From IMG/VR virus record IMGVR_UViG_2563366806_000003: a DNA stretch of 43,220 nucleotides. One strand, 5' to 3'. Position 1 is the stretch's first letter. The number at the start of each line of letters is the position of its first letter. The position numbers and the translations under genes were made by a program. This document shows positions 10,645 through 42,844 of this stretch, piece after piece. The notes below the pieces were generated by a model. It did not search any database. It was given only the letters and a program-made list of their open reading frames with translations, and was not told the origin of the DNA. The stretch is from a virus (lineage: Duplodnaviria; Heunggongvirae; Uroviricota; Caudoviricetes).

Positions 10645-11135
10645 TCATGAGTCTTTTGAATGAAGTTCAGAAATTCATTGAAGCCCATCCGGGGTGTACT
10701 TCCGGAGACATTGCGGATGCTTTTGCAGGTTACTCACGGCAGCGCGTTCTGCAGTCAGCAAGCAAGTTACGTCAGAGTGGGCGTGTGGCTCACCGTTGTG
10801 AAGGAGATACACGCAGACATTTCTCGCGCCTGACTGAGAGAGCGCAGGAGCCGGAACCACAACCAGTTTGTGAAACCAGACCTGTGCGCAAGTTCTATGT
10901 CGGCACTAACGCCCCCCGGGTGATTTTGTGCCTGACCCGCCAGGCTGAAGAACTGGAGTCGAGGGGCTTATACCGTCGTGCTGCAACGGTGTGGATGGAG
11001 GCATTCCGTGAAAGCCACTCCCAGCCAGAACGAAACAATTTTCTGGCGCGTCGTGAACGGTGTTTACGGAAAAGCAGCAAGCGCGCTGCATCGGGTGAAG
11101 AGTGGTATCTGTCAGGGAATTACGTGGGGGCTTAA
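10641..11135 (+). CDS. PerC-family-like regulatory protein with N-terminal extension
   Basis: C-terminal …AEELESRGLYRRAATVWMEAF… matches the PerC signature as recalled. Confidence 0.45.
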   Translation: MIMSLLNEVQKFIEAHPGCTSGDIADAFAGYSRQRVLQSASKLRQSGRVAHRCEGDTRRHFSRLTERAQEPEPQPVCETRPVRKFYVGTNAPRVILCLTRQAEELESRGLYRRAATVWMEAFRESHSQPERNNFLARRERCLRKSSKRAASGEEWYLSGNYVGA

Positions 11136-11461
11136 TGACTACGTTAACTCAATGCCAGCAGCAGGTGCTGGATATGCTGATTTCTTATCAGAAAGAACGT
11201 GGCTTCCCGCCAACCAATCAGGAGGTGGCAACCATGCTGGGATACCGTTCAGTGAATGCAGCGGTGGAGCATCTTCGCGCACTGGAGAAAAAAGGCGTCA
11301 TCACGATAAAGCGTGGCGTGGCCCGGGGCATCACGCTTCATACCGCGGTGAAGGACGACGACAGCGAGGCGGTCGGGATTATCCGCGCACTGCTTGCCGG
11401 TGAGGCAAACGCCAGGCTGCGTGCAGCCCACTGGTTACATGAGAGGGGCCTGAAAGTATGA
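11135..11461 (+). CDS. LexA N-terminal DNA-binding-domain-only protein (winged HTH, no S24 peptidase domain)
   Basis: LTQCQQQVLDMLISYQKERGFPPTNQEVATMLGYRSVNAAVEHLRALEKKGVITIKRGVARGITL aligns residue-by-residue with the E. coli LexA N-terminal domain; protein ends after about 108 aa. Confidence 0.65.
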   Translation: MTTLTQCQQQVLDMLISYQKERGFPPTNQEVATMLGYRSVNAAVEHLRALEKKGVITIKRGVARGITLHTAVKDDDSEAVGIIRALLAGEANARLRAAHWLHERGLKV

Positions 11462-13686: not shown

Positions 13687-14439
13687 ATGAACCTTGAAGC
13701 CTTACCAAAATATTACTCCCCAAAATCTCCAAAATTGAGCGATGACGCACCGGCGACAGGCTCAGGTGGTTTAACGATTACGGATGTGATGGCTGCGCAG
13801 GGGATGGTGCAGTCGAAAGCACCGCTTGGGTTTGCCTTATTCCTGGCAAAAGTTGGTGTTCAGGATCCTCAATTTGCGATTGAAGGTCTGCTCAATTACG
13901 CGATGGCACTGGATAACCCGACATTGAACAAATTGAGTGAAGAAACCCGGTTACAGATCATCCCTTACCTTGTGAATTTTGCCTTTGCTGATTATTCCAG
14001 GTCTGCGGCAAGTAAGGCTCGCTGTGAGCATTGTGCTGGTACTGGATTTCATAATGTATTGCGCGAAGTGGTGAAACACTCCAGAAGCGGGGAATCTGTT
14101 ATCAAGGAAGAGTGGGTGAAGGAACTATGTCAGCATTGTCATGGTAAGGGAGAAGTCAGCACAGCGTGCAGAGGGTGTAAGGGTAAAGGTATTGTCCTGG
14201 ATGAAAAAAGGACCCGGCTTCATGGCACGCCTGTTTATAAGATTTGTGGGCGTTGCAATGGAAACCGGTTTAGCCGTTTACCAACCACGCTGGCACGACG
14301 TCATGTCCAGAAGCTGGTACCAGACCTGACCGATTATCAGTGGTATAAGGGGTATGCGGACGTCATTGGTAAACTGGTAACAAAGTGCTGGCAGGAAGAA
14401 GCATACGCGGAAGCGCAATTGAGGAAGGTGACGAGATAA
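13687..14439 (+). CDS. Q: Late-gene antiterminator Q (lambdoid)
   Basis: Cys-rich Zn-finger region (CEHCAGTG…CQHCHGKG…CRGCKGKG); immediately upstream of a late promoter and short-transcript terminator. Confidence 0.8.
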   Translation: MNLEALPKYYSPKSPKLSDDAPATGSGGLTITDVMAAQGMVQSKAPLGFALFLAKVGVQDPQFAIEGLLNYAMALDNPTLNKLSEETRLQIIPYLVNFAFADYSRSAASKARCEHCAGTGFHNVLREVVKHSRSGESVIKEEWVKELCQHCHGKGEVSTACRGCKGKGIVLDEKRTRLHGTPVYKICGRCNGNRFSRLPTTLARRHVQKLVPDLTDYQWYKGYADVIGKLVTKCWQEEAYAEAQLRKVTR

Positions 14440-14470: not shown

Positions 14471-14499
14471 TTGCATTTTTCAAAAAATATGGATAAGAT
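14471..14499 (+). promoter_or_regulatory. Late promoter (pR'-like)
   Basis: TTGCAT -35, 17-bp spacer, TAAGAT -10, located 30 bp after Q. Confidence 0.5.
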
Positions 14500-14544: not shown

Positions 14545-14571
14545 GAACCCGCCACTGAGCGGGTTTTTTGT
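14545..14571 (+). terminator. tR'-like intrinsic terminator (Q-antiterminated)
   Basis: acccgc-cactga-gcgggt hairpin followed by T6, about 65 nt downstream of the late promoter. Confidence 0.7.
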
Positions 14572-14667: not shown

Positions 14668-14895
14668 ATGTTAACCAGAAGGGAAAAAGACATGCTAAAA
14701 CAGCAAGATATGACAGAAACCGCCGCCGCAGTCCTTCATTTCTTACCTGCTGACAAGTGGGTAACGCCACGCATGATGACGAGAACTACCGGAGTAAGCG
14801 AAGCCCGGTGCCAGTTAATACTGACTCAGTTAGTTCTGGCGGGTCTGGCGAAGGATAACGGCGGGTACGGGAATAAATTCAGACGCTGCCAGTAA
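14668..14895 (+). CDS. Hypothetical small late protein, 75 aa
   Basis: First ORF of the late transcript; no recognised motif. Confidence 0.35.
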   Translation: MLTRREKDMLKQQDMTETAAAVLHFLPADKWVTPRMMTRTTGVSEARCQLILTQLVLAGLAKDNGGYGNKFRRCQ

Positions 14896-15045
14896 TGGCG
14901 GTTTCCTGCTGTGAAAATGGGCGGCTGGTGGGTGTTGGTAGCACCTGCCAGCCATTCGCTCATGCTTACTGGTCACAAGCGAACCACGGCCCACTGCTTT
15001 AGCGCAAAAGCAGAGTGAGCCTACCAGAGTTACGCTTACTGATCC

Positions 15046-16098
15046 ATGAAAAATACTGTAAAAATAAACAGTGTTGATTTAATCAACGCTGATTGCCTGC
15101 ATTTTATTCAGTCCCTGCCTGATGATTCCATTGACCTGATTGTTACCGATCCGCCTTACTTCAAGGTGAAACCTAACGGTTGGGACAATCAGTGGAAAGG
15201 GGACGAAGATTACCTTAAGTGGCTGGACCACTGTCTGGCCCAGTTCTGGCGGGTGTTGAAACCTGCCGGAAGCCTTTACCTGTTCTGTGGGCATCGCCTG
15301 GCATCTGATATTGAGATCATGATGCGTGAACGTTTCAACGTGCTTAACCATATCATCTGGGCGAAGCCGTCCGGACGTTGGAATGGGTGTAATAAAGAAA
15401 GTCTGCGCGCATATTTTCCTGCCACAGAGCGCGTTCTGTTTGCTGAACATTACCAGGGGCCATATCGCGGCAAAAGTGACGGCTATGCGGCAAAAGAAAG
15501 GGAACTCAAACAGCACATAATGGCACCGCTGATATCGTATTTCAGGGATGCTCGTGCCGAACTGGGTATAACGGCAAAACAAATTGCCGAAGCCACAGGT
15601 AAGAAAAATATGGTTTCCCACTGGTTTGGTGCCAGTCAGTGGCAGTTGCCGAATGAGGCTGACTATCGGAAGTTACAGGCACTGTTTTCCCGTATAGCGG
15701 CAGAGAAGTTTCAGGAACAACAACTGGAACAACCACACCACCAGCTGGTGGCATCTTATGATTCACTGAATCGCAAATATTCTGAATTGCTGGATGAGTT
15801 TAAATCTCTCCGGCGCTATTTCTCCGTATCAGTTTCCGTGCCTTATACCGATGTCTGGACGCATAAGCCCGTTCAGTTCTATCCGGGTAAACATCCGTGC
15901 GAGAAACCGGCGGATATGCTCCGGCAAATAATCAATGCCAGTAGTCGACCTGGTGATCTGGTTGCTGATTTCTTTATGGGATCCGGTTCCACAATAAAAG
16001 CAGCAATGGCGCTGGGGCGTCGGGCGTTAGGTGTTGAACTTGAGTCAGAGCGGTTTAATCAGACGGTGAAAGAGGTAAGTGAACTGGTGGGGAAATAA
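15046..16098 (+). CDS. Orphan DNA N6-adenine/N4-cytosine methyltransferase (beta-class)
   Basis: DPPY motif (…IVTDPPYF…) near the N-terminus and FxGxG (…DFFMGSGST…) near the C-terminus; no adjacent restriction endonuclease. Confidence 0.8.
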   Translation: MKNTVKINSVDLINADCLHFIQSLPDDSIDLIVTDPPYFKVKPNGWDNQWKGDEDYLKWLDHCLAQFWRVLKPAGSLYLFCGHRLASDIEIMMRERFNVLNHIIWAKPSGRWNGCNKESLRAYFPATERVLFAEHYQGPYRGKSDGYAAKERELKQHIMAPLISYFRDARAELGITAKQIAEATGKKNMVSHWFGASQWQLPNEADYRKLQALFSRIAAEKFQEQQLEQPHHQLVASYDSLNRKYSELLDEFKSLRRYFSVSVSVPYTDVWTHKPVQFYPGKHPCEKPADMLRQIINASSRPGDLVADFFMGSGSTIKAAMALGRRALGVELESERFNQTVKEVSELVGK

Positions 16099-16174
16099 TT
16101 CTGGTGGCCACGTTGCGTGGCCTTTTTATTTCCAACACAGCACCCGCAAATATCGCGAGGTGAGAGATGACGAA

Positions 16175-16510
16175 ATGCCTCATAACCCAAATACCTGGCC
16201 GGACTGGCTGGAGTTGTTTCAGAGCTGGTGGCGTGGAGACACACCGCTGGGTGCAGTGATTATGTCGATCGTTATGGCTGGTTTGCGCATCGCCTATTTT
16301 GGCGGTGGTGGTGGCTGGAAGCGAAAAACGCTCGAGATTTTGCTATGTGGCGCTCTGACGCTGACCTTTGCATCCGCTCTTGAGTATGTCGGATGGCCTA
16401 AATCGCTTTCTGTTGCCATTGGTGGTGGCGTGGGGCTGATCGGTGTCGATGCTATTCGTGGGGCTGCAATGCGAGTAATCGGTAACAAATTTGGTAGCTC
16501 GAAGGAGTAA
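16175..16510 (+). CDS. Holin
   Basis: Small protein with predicted transmembrane segments immediately upstream of endolysin R; internal ATG after the gaggtgagag RBS; the track ORF extends upstream into the methyltransferase gene. Confidence 0.65.
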   Translation: MPHNPNTWPDWLELFQSWWRGDTPLGAVIMSIVMAGLRIAYFGGGGGWKRKTLEILLCGALTLTFASALEYVGWPKSLSVAIGGGVGLIGVDAIRGAAMRVIGNKFGSSKE

Positions 16511-16513
16511 TTT

Positions 16514-16990
16514 ATGCAGGCACTAAATTCCCAGCGTAAAGCTTTCCTGGATATGGTGGCATGGTCAGAAGGAACGGATAACGGGCGACAACCGACACGT
16601 AACCACGGTTATGATGTTATTGTTGGTGGCGAACTGTTCACTGATTACTCCGATCACCCTCGCAAACTTGTCACGCTAAACCCCAAACTCAAATCAACAG
16701 CCGCCGGACGTTACCAGCTTCTTTCACGCTGGTGGGATGCTTACCGTAAACAGCTTGGCCTGAAAGATTTTTCTCCAGAAAGCCAGGACGCTGTAGCTCT
16801 GCAACAGATTAAAGAGCGTGGCGCTTTACCGATGATTGACCGCGGTGATATTCGTCAGGCAATCGACCGTTGCAGCAATATCTGGGCTTCACTGCCGGGC
16901 GCTGGTTATGGCCAGTTCGAGCATAAGGCTGACAGCCTGATTGCAAAATTCAAAGAGGCTGGCGGAACGGTCAGAGAGATTGAGGTATGA
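16514..16990 (+). CDS. R: Endolysin, lambda R-type lytic transglycosylase
   Basis: Near-identical over most of its length to lambda R as recalled (…[22 protein letters not shown]…[35 protein letters not shown]…). Confidence 0.95.
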
Positions 16991-17424
16991 GCAGAGTCAC
17001 CGCGATTATCTCCGCTCTGGTTATCTGCATCATCGTCTGCCTGTCATGGGCTGTTAATCATTACCGTGATAACGCCATGACCTACAAAGAGCAGCGCGAT
17101 AAAGCCACATCCATAATCGCTGACATGCAGGAGCGTCAACGTGACGTAGCAGAACTCGACGCCAGATACACAAAGGAGCTTGCTGATGCTAACTCGACTA
17201 TCGAAAGTCTTCGTGCTGATGTTTCTGCTGGGCGTAAGCGCCTGCAAGTCGCCGCCACCTGTGCAAAGTCAACGACCGGAGCCAGCAGCATGGGCGATGG
17301 AGAAAGCCCAAGACTTACAGCAGATGCTGAACTCAATTATTACCGTCTCCGAAGTGGAATCGACAAGATAACCGCGCAGGTTAACTACCTGCAGGAATAC
17401 ATCAGGACGCAATGCCTGAAATAA
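16987..17424 (+). CDS. Rz: Rz i-spanin
   Basis: [30 protein letters not shown]… matches the lambda Rz N-terminus; ATGA overlap with R. Confidence 0.9.
17180..17371 (+). CDS. Rz1: Rz1 o-spanin lipoprotein, embedded in the +1 frame of Rz
   Basis: Lipobox LLGVSAC followed by a Pro-rich segment ([13 protein letters not shown]), wholly inside Rz in another frame. Confidence 0.85.
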
Positions 17425-36516: not shown

Positions 36517-37266
36517 ATGCATCGTATAGACACGAAAACCGCGCAGAAGGATAAGTTCGGCGCGGGTAAGAACGGTTTTACCCGTGGTAATCCCCAGACT
36601 GGTACGCCTGCCACCGATCTGGATGATGACTACTTTGACATGTTGCAGGAGGAGCTTTGCAGCGTTGTGGAGGCATCCGGTGCCAGCCTGGAGAAGGGGC
36701 GGCATGACCAGTTGCTTACCGCACTTCGCGCACTGCTGTTAAGCCGCAATAATCCGTTTGGTGATATCAAATCGGACGGCACGGTACCAACGGCTCTCGA
36801 AAACCTTGGTTTGGGAGAAGGTTCGGCATTACCCGTTGGTGTGCCTGTTCCGTGGCCTTCCGCCACTCCGCCAACAGGCTGGCTGAAATGCAACGGTGCG
36901 GCTTTTTCTGCTGAAGAATACCCGGAACTGGCAAAGGCTTACCCGACAAATAAATTGCCTGATTTACGTGGTGAGTTCATTCGTGGCTGGGATGACGGAA
37001 GAGGAATTGATACTAACCGTAGCTTGCTTTCATCACAGGGCGATGCCATTCGAAATATAATTGGTGCATTAGTGGATGTCAGGTTTAATACCTACCCTTC
37101 TGATTCTGGCGTTTTTACAACCAGCGTCATCGGAGATGCTTCATCTGATTCAATTAAAGGTGGTTATGCAAAGCGAGTAACATTCGATGCTTCCAGAGTT
37201 GTTCCAACTGCAAACGAAAACCGACCTCGTAACATTGCCTTTAATTATATCGTGAGGGCTGCCTGA
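36517..37266 (+). CDS. Tail fibre protein (constant N-terminus + variable C-terminus inside the invertible segment)
   Basis: N-terminus [44 protein letters not shown]… is typical of e14/Mu-type tail fibres; recombination site lies at codons [10 protein letters not shown]. Confidence 0.8.
36795..36821. repeat. Left recombination site of the invertible segment (gix/hix-like)
   Basis: tctcgaaaaccttggtttgggagaagg; the 15-mer ttggtttgggagaag recurs inverted at 38604-38618. Confidence 0.7.
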
Positions 37267-37868
37267 TGAATAAAGCCGTATTAAATAACGAACTCATTGC
37301 CATAAAAGCGGGAGACATTACCATTTATAATTATGATGGTGAAACGCGGGAATATATTTCCACATCAACTGAATATCTTGCGGTTGGCGTCGGTATACCG
37401 GCATGTTCTTGTTTAGATGCACCAGTTACACATAAAGCTGGTTATGCAATCTGCCGTTCTGCAGATTTTAACTCATGGGAATATGTGCCAGACCATCGCG
37501 GTGAAATCATCTATAGCACCGAAACAGGAGAATCAAAAGAAATCACAGCTCCGGGTGATTACCCTGAAAATACAACCACTATCGCCCCGTTAACGCCATT
37601 CGATAAATGGGATGGTGAGAAATGGGTGACCGATACTGAGGCACAGCATCGCGCCGCAGTAGACGCGGCAGAAGCACAGCGTCAGTCACTGATTGATACT
37701 GCAATGGCTTCCATTAGTCTGATTCAACTGAAATTACAGGCCGGGCGGAAACTGACGCAGGCAGAAACAACCCGGCTTAACGCTGTGCTGGATTACATTG
37801 ACGCGGTGACGGCAACAGATACCAGCACCGCGCCGGATGTCATCTGGCCTGAACTGCCGGAGGAGTAG
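37266..37868 (+). CDS. Tail fibre assembly protein (expressed orientation)
   Basis: ATGA-coupled to the tail fibre gene; C-terminal conserved Tfa motif also present in the inverted paralog. Confidence 0.75.
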   Translation: MNKAVLNNELIAIKAGDITIYNYDGETREYISTSTEYLAVGVGIPACSCLDAPVTHKAGYAICRSADFNSWEYVPDHRGEIIYSTETGESKEITAPGDYPENTTTIAPLTPFDKWDGEKWVTDTEAQHRAAVDAAEAQRQSLIDTAMASISLIQLKLQAGRKLTQAETTRLNAVLDYIDAVTATDTSTAPDVIWPELPEE

Positions 37869-38280
37869 GCCATTCAATATCTGGTGCACTGGAAGTATCG
37901 ACCAGCTCCAGTGCGTCCAGATAATCCAGCCACAAATTATATTGCGCCAGTTCCTCACCTTTCAGACGACCAATAGCCGCTTTACCAACCCATTGTCTAC
38001 TGTTCATATAATCGTTGGCCTGATTAATCAATTGCTGCTTTTTAGTTTCGGCTGATGCAATTTGTTCTTCACGTGTTGGCGGTGGAACATCTGCCCATGC
38101 TGGCATTCCATCGTCTCCGGTAATTCTGTACTTACCGTCAGGCGGCGTATCATGGAAATATTCCCTGAAAATAGCTTCGTCTATATCCACGCCTTTACCT
38201 TCGGGCCATTGGCCTTTTGCAGCGTAAACAGACTGGAGGGCATAAGGGTACGCCAGATTATCAACATACAAATATTTCAT
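37840..38280 (-). CDS. Alternative tail fibre assembly protein (silent orientation)
   Basis: Convergent with the first Tfa; similar C-terminal end (…DTSSAPDIEWPTPP… vs …DTSTAPDVIWPELP…). Confidence 0.7.
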   Translation of the reverse strand: MKYLYVDNLAYPYALQSVYAAKGQWPEGKGVDIDEAIFREYFHDTPPDGKYRITGDDGMPAWADVPPPTREEQIASAETKKQQLINQANDYMNSRQWVGKAAIGRLKGEELAQYNLWLDYLDALELVDTSSAPDIEWPTPPAVQAR

Positions 38281-38282
38281 AA

Positions 38283-38615
38283 TTAACGCCCTTTCGCGTA
38301 GAAGGCTCCACCTTCAAAGCCATAGTTACAATGAGCAACGAAACCTGTTTTCGTCCAGTTAGTTGCGCCCCACATATTCCCACCACCAAAACCGCCGTCA
38401 TATACAATCACTACGTCTGGCTCCTGCGTAAAAGGAATGGTGAAAGTCACATTTGTAGATACCGCCGCGGCGTTATTCGGGAAATTAATTCTTCCCCACT
38501 GTTCAATTGAACCATCAGGCAATTTTTGCCAGCCAGATCCTGATGAATAAGCTGACATATCAGGTATCTGATTTTCCCCTGTTCCCACATTCCGTTTTGC
38601 CGCTTCTCCCAAACC
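38283..38615 (-). CDS. Alternative tail fibre variable C-terminal segment (promoterless until inversion)
   Basis: Begins at the right recombination site with the same N-x-G-L-G-E junction codons as the tail fibre gene. Confidence 0.7.
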   Translation of the reverse strand, partial: GLGEAAKRNVGTGENQIPDMSAYSSGSGWQKLPDGSIEQWGRINFPNNAAAVSTNVTFTIPFTQEPDVVIVYDGGFGGGNMWGATNWTKTGFVAHCNYGFEGGAFYAKGR

Positions 38616-38628
38616 AACGTTTATGAAA
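38602..38628. repeat. Right recombination site of the invertible segment (inverted copy)
   Basis: Reverse complement tttcataaacgttggtttgggagaagc matches the left site. Confidence 0.7.
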
Positions 38629-38683
38629 ATGCAGAAATAGCGCGCAAATGGCATCGTTCCTGTTTTTGTCAGGAGGAGCTATC

Positions 38684-39240
38684 ATGCTTATTGGCTATGT
38701 TCGCGTATCAACAAATGACCAGAACACCGATCTACAACGTAATGCGTTGAACTGTGCAGGATGTGAGCTGATTTTTGAAGACAAGATAAGCGGTACAAAG
38801 TCCGACAGACCAGGACTGAAAAAGCTGCTCAGGACATTATCGGCAGGTGACACGCTGGTGGTCTGGAAACTGGACCGACTGGGGCGCAGTATGCGGCATC
38901 TTGTCGTGCTGGTGGAAGAGTTGCGCGAACGTGGCGTTAATTTTCGCAGCCTGACGGATGCTATTGATACCAGCACACCAATGGGGCGCTTTTTCTTTCA
39001 TGTGATGGGTGCCCTGGCTGAAATGGAGCGAGAGTTTATTGTCGAACGTACTAGGGCGGCTTTGCCGCAGCACGACAAGAAGGGAGGAACGGTGGGCGAA
39101 AGCCAAAGCTGACAGTAGAACAATGGGGGCAGGCTGGCAGGTTGATTGAATCGGGAATATATCAGCAGCAAGTCGCACTGATTTATGATCTGGGTATTTC
39201 AACGGTGTATAAAAAATTCCCTGTAGCAAGTAAACCATAG
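38684..39240 (+). pseudogene. Gin/Pin/Hin-family serine DNA invertase, disrupted by a single-base frameshift
   Basis: MLIGYVRVSTNDQNTDLQ… catalytic domain runs to 39112; the HTH domain (GRKPKLTVEQWGQAGRLIE…VALIYDLGISTVYKKFP) continues in another frame to 39240; join point at agggcggctttgcc (about 39052-39062) consistent with loss of one G. Confidence 0.75.
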
Positions 39241-39266: not shown

Positions 39267-39962
39267 TTATGCACTATTTTTAGGTCTTGTAACCCGAGGT
39301 GGGAGTTGTTTGGTTATATGTTCAAGTGATTTTTTGCCCAAGATAGTTCTTTGGACAAAACTTTCTATAGCTTCTAGCATTTGTTCGAACTCACTTTTAT
39401 TCGGGCTCCAACTGCGATGTGCGGCGGCGTTTCCTGCATCAATTACTGAAGATATAACGCATGCCTCAGTGTCGCCTATGACTCCATCTTGTTTTAATTT
39501 TTCAACTTTTTCACCAAGCGGCAAACCGGGGTGAATTTGTAACAGTTCAGCAGTTCGATCAAAAATCGTCCGTAAACCGATGGACGAAAGAATGAAATGG
39601 TCAGAAGTATATGAAGAATACATTTCATTAAATATTTGAAAGAGCTGACGATCAACTGATTCAAGCTTGGATAACCATATCGGAGCTTGAAATGTTTCAG
39701 CGGCAGGATAGGTAGTGATCATATCTATAGGCGTTTCTACAAATTCACCATCACGATATTCGTGGGTAGTATGCTCACTGAAGTGTTCGTTGTGGTGATA
39801 GAAGACAGTATCACAGCCATTGCATTGGAGTAGGTGATGGTAATGGTACCCATAAACTGGATATTGGGAATCCTCCCAGCTAGTGGTTAGCTTCCCATGC
39901 ACAGTGCAGTTACGTAACCCACCGCATGTAGGGCAAAGAGCCTTGAGTATTTCCTTTTTCAT
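39267..39962 (-). CDS. Hypothetical Zn-ribbon protein (231 aa), candidate defence/exclusion cargo; function not recognised
   Basis: AT-rich ORF antisense to the tail operon; N-terminal CPTCGG…C and CNGC cysteine pairs; the rest matches nothing I recognise. Confidence 0.55.
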   Translation of the reverse strand: MKKEILKALCPTCGGLRNCTVHGKLTTSWEDSQYPVYGYHYHHLLQCNGCDTVFYHHNEHFSEHTTHEYRDGEFVETPIDMITTYPAAETFQAPIWLSKLESVDRQLFQIFNEMYSSYTSDHFILSSIGLRTIFDRTAELLQIHPGLPLGEKVEKLKQDGVIGDTEACVISSVIDAGNAAAHRSWSPNKSEFEQMLEAIESFVQRTILGKKSLEHITKQLPPRVTRPKNSA

Positions 39963-40620: not shown

Positions 40621-41718
40621 TCAAGAGGTCTTATTTCTGCTCCTTTGGAGCTCTTCAAAACGATTATGTAAAGATTTCGGATACAGTTCGGTATATACCT
40701 GCCATAGCACGTTTAATGAACGATGCCCTGTAACTTGGGCGACTTCCTCAATACTAAAACCAGCCTCAAATAAGCGACTTGCCCCTTCTCTACGCAAATC
40801 ATGGTATCGCAGATCCTTAATACCTAATTTGCTTCTTACTCTCTGAAATCCCGCAGTAACAGAAGTGCTGTTATATGGAAAAATGAATTCCGATTTTTGG
40901 GGCTGTCGTTGGACGATATCCCAGGCTTCCCCAAGCAAGGCTACTTTCATGTGGTTGCCTTCCTTTTTGCGTGGATCTTTCCTGTCTCTTACGAGTATAG
41001 ATTTTTGTTCCTGGTCGAGATCTTCCCATCGTAACCGGCATACTTCTCCGATTCGCATACAGGACCATACAGAAAATTTGAGGATATCAACGAACGGAAT
41101 TTTTGAGCATTTATGAGTAGATCGTTGTTGAAGGCCTGCAATGAGCATGTCCAGTTCATCAGATGCTGGTCTACGATTACGACGGTTTGATTTACCAATC
41201 AAACCAAGTTTAAGTAGATATGGGCGAGCGCTTTTCGCCGGGTTTGATGTGTAATTAATTCCGTATACAGGTTTGGCCGCATCCAGAACACTGCCAAGAT
41301 AACTAACATCGTGGCTGACTGTTGCAGGACCTGCACCAGCGTTGTTTCTTAGCCTGCAATGTTCAATTACGTCATTTTCTGTCAGTTCAGATAGTTTGAT
41401 CGCGGAGATGTCACTATCCATAAGCAGTTCCAGCACATATCTTTTAGTACGGCCTGCTTTACCTCCGGCATTTGGGTCATTTAAATATTTGTGTAGTAAG
41501 TCACGGACTGTAAGTCCGTCAACTGCATTTGATGATGGAATACCATATAGATCTAATTCCATCACTTTCTGTGTGCCCCATGTTTTGGCATGAGCATGTT
41601 TAGGGAATGTTTTGCTTTCCCTGTAAGTGATAACACCTTTTTCTTTGATAATCACATTACAGCGATAGCGTGGTGTGCCATCGGATTTTAGTCGTTTCTC
41701 TATGTTATAGTACGCCAT
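40621..41718 (-). CDS. int: Tyrosine integrase (dusA-specific type)
   Basis: 365 aa with C-terminal catalytic region (…HDLRREGASRLFEAG…VTGHRSLNVLWQVY…); adjacent and divergent to dusA. Confidence 0.9.
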   Translation of the reverse strand: MAYYNIEKRLKSDGTPRYRCNVIIKEKGVITYRESKTFPKHAHAKTWGTQKVMELDLYGIPSSNAVDGLTVRDLLHKYLNDPNAGGKAGRTKRYVLELLMDSDISAIKLSELTENDVIEHCRLRNNAGAGPATVSHDVSYLGSVLDAAKPVYGINYTSNPAKSARPYLLKLGLIGKSNRRNRRPASDELDMLIAGLQQRSTHKCSKIPFVDILKFSVWSCMRIGEVCRLRWEDLDQEQKSILVRDRKDPRKKEGNHMKVALLGEAWDIVQRQPQKSEFIFPYNSTSVTAGFQRVRSKLGIKDLRYHDLRREGASRLFEAGFSIEEVAQVTGHRSLNVLWQVYTELYPKSLHNRFEELQRSRNKTS

Positions 41719-41806: not shown

Positions 41807-42844
41807 ATGCACGATAATCATGAAACACAAAAAATTAATCAAACCAGCGTGATGCCTGAAAAAACTGGTGTTTACTGGAATTCTCGGTTTAGCATTGCTC
41901 CTATGCTCGACTGGACGGACAGACATTGCCGCTATTTCTTGCGTCTGCTTTCCCGCAATACGTTGCTGTATACTGAAATGGTAACTACAGGGGCGATTAT
42001 TCACGGTAAAGGTGATTACCTGGCGTATAGTGAAGAAGAACATCCGGTAGCGTTGCAACTCGGCGGTAGCGATCCGGCGGCGCTGGCGCAGTGTGCGAAG
42101 CTGGCAGAAGCGCGTGGATATGATGAGATCAACCTGAATGTCGGCTGCCCGTCTGACCGGGTGCAGAACGGCATGTTTGGTGCGTGTCTGATGGGTAATG
42201 CGCAGCTGGTTGCCGACTGCGTGAAAGCGATGCGCGATGTGGTGTCGATTCCGGTGACGGTGAAAACGCGTATTGGCATCGACGACCAGGACAGCTATGA
42301 ATTTCTCTGCGATTTCATCAACACCGTTTCCGGCAAAGGCGAGTGTGAGATGTTCATCATCCATGCACGTAAAGCCTGGCTTTCGGGGTTAAGTCCGAAA
42401 GAAAACCGTGAGATCCCGCCGCTCGATTATCCGCGTGTGTATCAACTGAAGCGTGACTTTCCGCATCTGACAATGTCGATTAACGGTGGTATCAAGTCGC
42501 TGGAAGAGGCCAAAGCACACCTGCAACATATGGATGGCGTGATGGTCGGGCGCGAGGCGTATCAGAATCCGGGTATTCTGGCGGCGGTAGACCGGGAGAT
42601 CTTTGGTTCCTCGGATATCGATGCCGATCCGGTGGCGGTAGTGCGCGCCATGTATCCGTACATTGAGCGTGAACTCAGCCAGGGGACGTATCTCGGTCAT
42701 ATTACCCGGCATATGTTGGGCTTGTTCCAGGGTATTCCTGGCGCGCGGCAGTGGCGGCGTTATTTAAGTGAAAACGCCCATAAAGCGGGTGCAGACATTA
42801 ATGTGCTGGAACACGCGCTCAAACTGGTGGCGGATAAGCGTTAA
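41807..42844 (+). CDS. dusA: tRNA-dihydrouridine(20/20a) synthase DusA; first ~32 codons supplied by the prophage
   Basis: 345 aa Dus-family protein; N-terminus [35 protein letters not shown] differs from the displaced native N-terminus at 1071-1175. Confidence 0.9.

Follow-up and report, generated by a model that had tools for sequence, protein, structure and literature searches.

An M.EcoGII-family methyltransferase gene in the late operon of an SfV-like prophage and the conserved structured RNA leader directly upstream of it

The gene at positions 15046..16098 (+ strand) of the viral record IMGVR_UViG_2563366806_000003, which was analysed here over its whole length of 43,220 nucleotides (the window), raises the question of why a prophage carries a DNA methyltransferase (MTase) just ahead of its lysis genes, which sequence such an enzyme would recognize, and how its production would be controlled. 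An SfV-like lambdoid prophage, inserted at dusA, takes up the entire window, and a tRNA scan of the window detected none. The MTase gene is an intact ORF with an ATG start and encodes 350 aa. Its motifs are arranged in the beta-class order of N6A/N4C amino-methyltransferases, with DPPY at aa 35-38, FMGSG (the F.G.G motif) at aa 310-314 and the target-recognition region between them. Pfam PF01555 (N6_N4_Mtase) matches aa 29-341 with E=1.3e-42, and the top PADLOC match is a Type II MTase model.

The structure predicted by AlphaFold2 is in agreement with this assignment. The model built from a deeper alignment reached pLDDT 94.5 and pTM 0.90, and it supersedes an earlier run on 42 close homologues (pLDDT 65). 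In a Foldseek comparison with the PDB it retrieved M.BceJIV, CcrM, M.RsrI and M.MboIIA (E 1e-14 to 1e-17), and each of the best 46 PDB matches was either a beta-class DNA MTase or a Mod subunit of a Type III system. These four enzymes share the catalytic fold of the window MTase (target-normalised TM 0.55-0.78, sequence E down to 3e-24); however, they are site-specific and only about 20% identical to it, and the helical insert of the window MTase, spanning aa 147-255 (helices at aa 147-173, 177-184, 190-194, 204-223 and 238-255), has no counterpart in the shorter solved enzymes. No restriction enzyme was found among the 25 window proteins compared with Pfam, the six compared with PADLOC, or the annotated genes of the near-identical CX21 prophage, and the nuclease domains among the scanned window proteins were limited to a terminase-associated HNH and DUF968. 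The initial annotation as an orphan beta-class amino-methyltransferase, made from the 350-aa ORF, the order of DPPY before FxGxG and the lack of a partner restriction enzyme, is confirmed; the gene is real and intact, and it is of a well-known prophage kind.

The position of the gene is informative about its likely control. On the + strand, the order is Q, pR'-like promoter, tR', small ORF, MTase, terminator, holin, endolysin and spanin. The Q-type late antiterminator gene (13687..14439, +) matches PF03589 Antiterm (E=1.9e-53) and phrog_127, and an equivalent 753-nt Q gene was annotated by PGAP in CX21. A putative pR'-like late promoter, TTGCAT-17 nt-TAAGAT (14471..14499, +), was recognized from its sequence and from its position after Q and before a terminator. 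The latter is a tR'-like intrinsic terminator with an AACCCGC/GCGGGTT stem and T6 (14546..14569, +), and a putative rho-independent terminator is annotated at the equivalent site of SfV. Both elements were read by eye, the promoter having been missed by the consensus promoter scan and tR' by the terminator scan. They are followed by a small late ORF of 67 aa (14692..14895, +), which matches phrog_331 of unknown function (E=4.6e-26), gave no match in the Pfam and PADLOC scans, and has counterparts listed as hypothetical in CX21, SfV (orf47) and Stx2a_WGPS2. A terminator-like hairpin, GCTGCC/GGCGGT then TTCCT (14885..14907, +), lies over its stop codon; it is a weak terminator in the window and carries a long T-run in related loci. 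Downstream of the MTase, the terminator scan found an intrinsic terminator at 16106..16131 (+), with a GGCCACG/CGTGGCC stem (16106-16122) and a T-run, which is also annotated in SfV and phage Ayreon. The lysis cassette (16175..17424, +) then comprises ORFs for a holin (16175-16510; phrog_126), an endolysin (16514-16990) and a spanin (16987-17424), and its equivalents are annotated in CX21 (PGAP) and SfV. The placement between a late promoter and the holin, as first proposed, therefore holds for the interval from tR' to the holin, with the promoter itself deduced from position and sequence, and among the late genes the MTase is the first of any size, although the 67-aa ORF comes before it.

This slot between pR'/tR' and S, in the orientation of the lysis genes, is also where stx and other 'moron' genes of lambdoid phages are found. 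Q-dependent expression from the slot is established for stx. The MTase cargo is unlike stx in that it acts on nucleic acid, is no toxin and has a structured leader of its own. The 'DNA methylase' genes of SfV (orf48), mEp460, cdtI, Ayreon and PhiR40_1 show 97-99.8% DNA identity to the window gene and are likewise placed after Q/tR' and before the holin, with no difference of substance; they are known from database annotation, and no functional studies of them were found. SfV differs in another respect, as a second, Dam-type MTase in its nin region, also present in CX21, is absent from the window prophage. The gene is common: of 5426 complete E. coli genomes, 1256 carry it. More distant homologues lie directly upstream of lysis genes in a Serratia lambdoid phage (63% identical to M.EcoGII), an N15-like phage (56%) and a Vibrio VHML-like phage (50%). 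In Stx2a_WGPS2, a homologue that shares 93% identity with M.EcoGII is found in this late-operon slot with the same leader, between the small ORF and the ileZ-argN-argO tRNAs, which are followed by stx2AB.

M.EcoGII has been characterised as a non-specific adenine methylase of E. coli prophages whose substrates also include RNA, single-stranded DNA and DNA:RNA hybrids (PMC5778455). Judged by sequence, the window MTase belongs to the same family. Over the full length, 283 of 349 aligned positions are identical to M.EcoGII (81%), or about 82% once three evident machine-reading errors are corrected; since the reference is a machine-read copy from a published supplement, and both alignment gaps are such errors, the identities are lower bounds. 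The window MTase is nearer to the reconstructed ancestor Anc291 (at least 88% identical) than to M.EcoGII, and is at least 70% identical to SUPREM. Like M.EcoGII and M.EcoGI from the prophages of E. coli O104:H4 C227-11 (PMC5778455), it has the beta-class order, falls within 349-350 aa, is prophage-borne and is an orphan, and it is unlike M.EcoGII in that about 18% of the residues of this SfV orf48-type allele differ. In the published model of the family, aa 160-237 form a four-helix bundle and aa 97-110 and 116-140 the dimer interface. Apart from a machine-reading error, the interface stretches of the window MTase differ from those of M.EcoGII at just two residues, N98 (S) and V130 (I), and the target-recognition region at aa 160-237 is 77% identical. 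The initial annotation held that the target could not be told from the sequence, yet this kinship allows a prediction. The target is most probably adenine in any sequence context, as for M.EcoGII, because of the 81-82% identity, because M.EcoGII, Anc291 and SUPREM displayed no sequence motif on RNA in published assays, and because the closest site-specific relative, M.PflMI, is just 27% identical to M.EcoGII.

Taken together, we consider it likely that an M.EcoGII-type MTase acting on any adenine would be expressed late under Q, be controlled further by its leader, and protect progeny DNA from restriction. Owing to the terminator on each side of the gene, its transcription would be confined to the time after induction, when Q renders RNA polymerase termination-resistant, and the 137-nt leader would add translational control. 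The enzyme made late would then methylate replicated phage DNA before packaging, so that the progeny could resist those Type I, II and III restriction enzymes of the next host that are blocked by adenine methylation, while the lysogen would be spared an enzyme that is harmful under constitutive expression. Protection of progeny DNA, which the initial annotation had also considered, is the function proposed in the literature for the M.EcoGII family; M.EcoGI and M.EcoGII cause no detectable methylation in lysogens, and constitutive clones are unstable and slow-growing (PMC5778455). An epigenetic role in the lysogen, the second role first suggested, is unlikely in view of the flanking terminators and the silence of family members there. 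Because of this silence, a comparison of methylation between the lysogen and a cured strain would be expected to show nothing, and the finding of no new motif could not refute activity, since a non-specific enzyme gives no motif.

The alternative that survives best, although we regard it as unlikely, is that the main role of the MTase lies in lytic-phase regulation or host takeover, i.e., that adenines are methylated globally, in the DNA of host or phage or in RNA, and that transcription, replication, repair or packaging is altered in this way. The breadth of M.EcoGII substrates, reaching to RNA, single-stranded DNA and DNA:RNA hybrids, would be in accordance with such a role, and the linkage to the lysis cassette, kept in three phage architectures, suggests that timing matters. 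Reviews also point out that regulation of the viral cycle may be the task of many orphan MTases of phages. Moreover, Murray et al. reported a 10,000- to 100,000-fold loss of transformation of non-restricting E. coli by pBR322 with 80% m6A (PMC5778455). This poor establishment argues against simple full protection of virion DNA; heavily methylated virion DNA may be harmful, and the natural m6A level may be low. Nucleases that depend on m6A would likewise make adenine modification a liability. However, according to the M.EcoGII authors, partial methylation suffices to blunt restriction (PMC5778455). The presence of the Dam-type MTase in SfV and CX21 and its absence here further indicate that no one regulatory circuit of the phage is bound up with the late MTase. 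Protection of the progeny is the role that we prefer.

The same logic has been proposed for other enzymes. Mom of phage Mu modifies adenine in another way, comes from an unrelated protein family and is governed by its own control circuit. Nevertheless, Mom, the promiscuous MTases of Drozdz et al. 2012 (cited in PMC5778455) and the window MTase are alike in being phage or prophage enzymes of broad adenine modification, by which many restriction systems could be evaded. In the Drozdz enzymes, the motif order is reversed (alpha) relative to that of the window MTase.

The sequence immediately upstream of the MTase gene (14909..15045, +) is a conserved, structured 5' leader RNA of 137 nt, as indicated by a covariance model, covariation and linkage to the MTase. 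The covariance model matched 14909-15051 with 151 bits (E=1e-42), its sole match in the window. The architecture is that of a three-way junction with additional hairpins and invariant unpaired nucleotides. Helix H0 (14918-14922/14989-14993, +) closes the junction around P1 (14923-14934/14942-14953, +) and P2 (14955-14964/14974-14983, +). P3 (14994-15000/15007-15013, +) is followed by a conserved GAGCCUAYCA block, and a tentative P4, AUCAG/CUGAU (15023-15027/15039-15043, +), by the start of the gene, with UGAUCC immediately before the MTase AUG and no canonical Shine-Dalgarno sequence in the leader. In the alignment that had not been fitted to the structure, 83.7% of cells were paired, compared with 28-42% in slid controls, and 19 pairs had changed on both sides, compared with 6-13 in controls; the covariation of the leader exceeds both shuffled and slid controls. 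In the fitted alignment of 71 distinct sequences, H0 was 100% and P1 94% paired, with compensatory changes in 10 of the 12 P1 pairs. Support is weak for P4, the putative expression-platform helix, which is 74-79% paired with one or two covarying pairs and has a C-A mismatch in the window. Two mutually exclusive and nearly isoenergetic folds, one with H0 and the other with an extended P3, each show some covariation; the extended P3 is a possibility with modest support, being 76.7% paired with one clearly covarying pair.

Several other candidates were rejected. A pseudoknot between the P1 loop (UGGUAG) and a conserved CUACCA was discarded, as the loop varies in other copies without matching changes. 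A 7-bp helix AGUGAGC/GCUUACU from a constrained fold was likewise discarded, as GCUGACU variants break it without compensation. The leader also does not overlap a conserved small ORF, as each frame is open in at most 27 of the 71 copies; length differences between copies are also not multiples of three. The apparent fusion of the leader to another gene in one locus (L259) was attributed to an assembly gap.

Copies of the leader range from E. coli to Vibrio phages. Among the 82 copies, which were found independently by DNA pattern, an M.EcoGII-family MTase or a fragment of it, with protein identity down to about 56%, follows at the modelled start codon in 81. The small ORF is missing from some related loci, and there the leader directly follows tR'. 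The leader is mostly or wholly missing from the Photorhabdus and Xenorhabdus homologues and from loci L113 and L126. In eight distant comparisons, nucleotide identity amounted to 58-91% in the leader, 59-77% in the coding sequence and 36-55% at third codon positions; the leader equalled or surpassed the coding sequence in conservation in seven of the eight and was more conserved than synonymous positions in all eight.

It could be argued that the upstream block instead acts as DNA, whether as an internal promoter or as a palindrome bound by a protein, or is a mere hitch-hiker of the module. Any RNA hairpin doubles as a DNA palindrome, many copies have a perfectly palindromic P3 apex (TTTAGCGCTAAA), and linkage by itself would account for the co-occurrence of leader and MTase. 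We consider this reading quite unlikely. Hitch-hiking fails as an explanation because the conservation of the block surpasses that of the coding sequence in seven of the eight distant comparisons and, by a wide margin, that of the synonymous sites in all eight. Compensatory changes preserve four helices, one of them long-range. G-U pairs are frequent (for example, 25 U-G at one P1 pair); they assign the structure to the strand of the MTase gene, as they would be A-C mismatches on the opposite strand. Moreover, the promoter scan detected no sigma-70-like promoter inside the leader. The block is an RNA of conserved structure that is encoded on the same strand as the MTase gene and immediately precedes members of a single gene family.

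The function of this RNA is most likely the translational control of a toxic enzyme. Since Q would already provide the late timing, this additional level of control is something that we infer from the structure and position of the leader. It resembles riboswitches and other structured 5' leaders in its roughly 140 nt before the start codon, its multi-helix junction, its covariation and its alternative folds, and it is unlike known riboswitches in having no Rfam family match. Searches of Rfam 15 with the 191-nt region or the Vibrio phage copy gave no relevant match with E up to 10, and full-text literature searches for leader sequence strings, AgvB with methyltransferase, and N6_N4_Mtase RNA motifs returned nothing relevant. 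Tentatively, and with somewhat less than even confidence, the leader might represent an undescribed class of cis-regulatory RNA for M.EcoGII-type hypermethylases, in which a bistable three-way junction would gate translation of the toxic enzyme, perhaps in response to SAM/SAH, a phage late factor or the methylase. M.EcoGII is known to act on RNA, and a putative feedback could involve binding of the methylase to, or methylation of, its own mRNA.

With respect to the enzyme, it could also be supposed that the MTase is a sequence-specific orphan with a defined recognition site, which guards against a few restriction systems or marks particular sites. PF01555 enzymes are mostly site-specific, the NCBI product name is 'site-specific DNA-methyltransferase', and the specificity of the window allele rests on homology; as 18% of the residues differ from M.EcoGII, including 23% in the target-recognition region, an altered specificity could in principle be conceived. 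We hold this to be very unlikely, however, since the window MTase is closer still to Anc291, enzymes of the reconstructed M.EcoGII lineage down to about 70% identity to it (SUPREM) displayed no motif in the published RNA assays, and the nearest site-specific enzyme is as remote as M.PflMI. The ancestors tested on this lineage were all active on DNA, and 93%-similar homologues have already been labelled non-specific in published methylome work. An MTase acting on adenine in any context remains the predicted enzyme. It is hardly credible that the gene is a decaying, non-functional prophage remnant: although only a C-terminal piece (aa 315-348) is kept in many Stx2a phages, shortened copies occur (L178 and L189) and lysogens give no methylation signal from family members, the window copy is full length with every motif intact and is under purifying selection (dN/dS of 0.06 against SfV and 0.09 against an Stx2a phage copy), intact copies number in the hundreds, and silence in lysogens is a prediction of late-operon control rather than a sign of decay.

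Based on these results, the methylase is a common gene of a known prophage kind, and the conserved leader is the new part. Correct filing of the MTase is still of value, as genome annotation calls it 'site-specific' and methylome studies of lysogens would miss it. The MTase may decide whether induced phages, including Shiga-toxin phages with the module upstream of stx, cross the restriction barriers between strains. Its best-studied relative, M.EcoGII, has already been put to use in published work as a tool for studying chromatin and RNA methylation, and users who express a native M.EcoGII-type gene should be aware of the upstream leader. The leader would be a new and experimentally tractable RNA regulatory element, and it could explain how cells and phages keep a harmful methylase off until lysis.

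The open reading frame at 15046-16098 on the plus strand starts with ATG and encodes 350 amino acids, as the initial annotation had stated, and the motif order by which the product had been assigned to the beta class was borne out, with DPPY at residues 35-38 followed by FMGSG at residues 310-314. A Pfam match to PF01555 (N6_N4_Mtase) covers residues 29-341 (E=1.3e-42), and the solved structures nearest to it in sequence are those of M.BceJIV, M.RsrI, M.MboIIA, and CcrM. An earlier AlphaFold2 model from close homologues only was poor; the model from an 87-sequence alignment had a pLDDT of 94.5 and a pTM of 0.90, and its best PDB matches were all beta-class amino-methyltransferases (E 1e-14 to 1e-17). 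The dN/dS values (0.06 against SfV and 0.09 against Stx2a_WGPS2, a Shiga-toxin phage with a homologue) show that selection on the gene is strongly purifying.

The characterised member of the family is M.EcoGII, a non-specific adenine methyltransferase from a prophage of E. coli O104:H4 (PMC5778455). The reference sequence used here was the one printed in the supplement of PMC11551740; 283/349 residues were identical over the full length, and the true identity is about 82%, since three differences in the printed copy are evident machine-reading errors. Identity reached 89% across the N-terminal catalytic part and fell to 77% over the target-recognition region (residues 160-237). Among reconstructed relatives, the enzyme is at least 88% identical to the ancestor Anc291 and about 70% identical to SUPREM. 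Sequence motifs on RNA are lacking for M.EcoGII, Anc291, and SUPREM, DNA activity was present in all ancestors tested, and M.PflMI, which comes closest among enzymes whose specific site is confirmed, shares only 27% identity with M.EcoGII. Because of these identities, the motif-free relatives, the distance of M.PflMI, and the purifying selection, sequence comparison places the enzyme in the M.EcoGII family, and it is predicted to methylate adenine regardless of context, although for this allele the activity is one that we infer. The target, which was thought impossible to tell from the sequence, is thus predicted by homology to M.EcoGII, and the initial interpretation is supported in part. M.EcoGII is silent in the lysogen, and constitutive clones were slow-growing and unstable (PMC5778455). 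The comparison of methylation between lysogen and cured strain, as proposed in the initial annotation, would be uninformative. In itself the methylase is ordinary, being one more member of a known family.

A complete SfV-like prophage occupies the window; it is inserted at dusA (41807-42844), and its integrase lies at 40621-41718. On the plus strand, the Q antiterminator (13687-14439; PF03589) comes first. Inspection of the sequence showed, 3' of it, a promoter-like TTGCAT-17 nt-TAAGAT (14471-14499) and, at 14546-14569, the hairpin and T-run of tR'; a terminator equivalent to the latter is annotated in SfV. Next is a 67-aa ORF of unassigned function (14692-14895; phrog_331). The methyltransferase gene lies between this ORF and a clear-cut intrinsic terminator (16106-16122, followed by a T-run), after which come the holin, endolysin, and spanin genes on the same strand. 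This anatomy strongly suggests late, Q-dependent expression. The enzyme had been called an orphan, and no partner restriction enzyme was found among the scanned window proteins; none is annotated in CX21, a near-identical prophage. In SfV (453-1106 of locus L001) and CX21 (15440-16093 of L002), a 654-bp Dam-type 'phage N-6-adenine-methyltransferase' gene lies between PerC-family and LexA-like genes; compared with both, it is cleanly missing at the window junction 11135-11138, which leaves the late gene as the sole methylase found here. The small ORF region (14720-14910, against 4685-4865 of L001) is a divergent allele relative to SfV, most of it without a BLAST match and with flanks 97-98% identical; the ORF is missing from some related loci, where the leader described below lies directly 3' of tR'.

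Two other loci were also noted. Facing tail-fibre-assembly genes (37266-37868, plus; 37840-38280, minus), a Gp53-like tail-fibre C-terminal ORF (38283-38654, minus), and a serine recombinase (38648-39112, plus; PF00239, E=7e-49) together look like a Gin/Cin-type invertible host-range switch at 37266-39112. A DUF4145 protein gene (39267-39962, minus; phrog_1305, 'DNA binding protein') occupies a typical cargo position, flanked by the tail-fibre region and the integrase; its product matched no PADLOC defence model.

At the DNA level, the gene is 97-99.8% identical to annotated DNA methylase genes of SfV (orf48), cdtI, mEp460, Ayreon, and PhiR40_1; against the copies in Stx2c phages the figure is about 86%. 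Of 5426 complete E. coli genomes, 1256 carry it, with a maximum of 8 copies in one genome, and close homologues are spread throughout Enterobacterales. In Shiga-toxin phages, stx sits in the slot that the methylase fills here. The full gene is kept 5' of the tRNAs and stx2AB in Stx2c phages and in Stx2a_WGPS2 (small ORF, methylase homologue, ileZ-argN-argO, stx2AB), whereas many Stx2a-converting phages (phage records H62-H78) retain only the last ~34 codons (residues 315-348; e.g., NC_008464.1, 59743-59841), which suggests repeated loss in this slot. Three homologues, with 63%, 56%, and 50% identity to M.EcoGII, come from one Serratia lambdoid phage (L004, 2498-3526), one N15-like phage (L005, 2501-3577), and one Vibrio VHML-like phage (L006, 2462-3541), respectively. 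Each lies immediately 5' of holin or endolysin genes, and the linkage with lysis thus persists where the remaining genome architecture does not.

The unexpected result, and the one meriting experimental follow-up, is a conserved leader RNA. When upstream sequences were compared, the block directly 5' of the start codon (14909-15045, plus) was unexpectedly conserved and had no canonical Shine-Dalgarno. It shares 58-91% of its nucleotides with distant copies; the coding sequence shares 59-77%, and third codon positions 36-55%. The block exceeded the coding sequence in 7 of 8 comparisons, and no reading frame was conserved through it. RNAalifold on fifty-one diverse copies (alignment A5) identified a hairpin with covariation as well as a long-range helix, and the architecture then defined is a three-way junction with hairpins, in which H0 (UGGGC/GCCCA) encloses P1 and P2, followed by P3, an invariant GAGCCUAYCA block, a tentative P4, and UGAUCY abutting the AUG. 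Covariation was first scored on a MAFFT alignment, which is not fitted to this structure: 83.7% of cells were paired (28-42% with slid partners), 19 pairs were changed on both sides (6-13 in slid controls), and the covariation score was 0.142 (0.045-0.080), values reached by none of 500 shuffles. When 71 distinct leaders were realigned with a covariance model, a fit biased towards the structure, H0 was 100% paired with one compensatory change (G-C to A-U), P1 was 94% paired with compensatory changes in 10 of 12 pairs, and such changes occurred in 8/10 pairs of P2 and 6/7 of P3. Because G-U pairs are frequent, the structure is assigned to the strand of the gene. An alternative helix extending P3 and excluding H0 has similar energy in the window and modest covariation, and therefore the leader may be bistable.

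The leader precedes M.EcoGII-family genes from E. coli to Vibrio phages, and the covariance model finds exactly one copy in the window (14909-15051, 151 bits). Scanning viral contigs with a leader-only DNA pattern gave 120 stretches, of which 100 were searched with the model, yielding 82 hits; contig ends interrupt many of the copies, and a few are truncated remnants. In 81 of these hits the frame at the modelled AUG was a family methylase or fragment (56-100% identity), and the one exception, of Vibrio type, has a longer spacer. Photorhabdus and Xenorhabdus homologues (L141-L166; ~64-65% identical) have only a shortened leader, which retains the 5' GUGAAAUGG block and the P1 hairpin without the 3' half of P2, the H0 partner, and P3; the model does not find these upstream regions, and their leader may be a reduced form or an alternative one. 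The element is missing at two further loci. No Rfam 15 family matched it, even at E up to 10, and literature searches on it found nothing relevant.

No GGAGG-type ribosome-binding site was found 5' of the gene (15039-15048). The conserved UGAUCY abutting the AUG is complementary to GGAUCA, a sequence close to the 3' end of 16S rRNA, so it may act as an unusual initiation signal. The weak translation signals, together with the leader, may limit the methylase dose.

A role of the enzyme in host takeover or RNA methylation is possible, though less likely. The most likely reading is that in the lysogen a harmful non-specific adenine methylase is kept silent by the terminators and the structured leader. 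After induction, Q-modified polymerase would read through the terminators, and the methylase would be made together with the lysis and morphogenesis proteins. Plasmid DNA with 80% m6A transformed 10,000 to 100,000 times less efficiently (PMC5778455), which argues against full methylation, and natural methylation levels are therefore probably partial. Replicated phage DNA would be methylated ahead of packaging, and methylation of the virion DNA would make restriction by the next host less effective.
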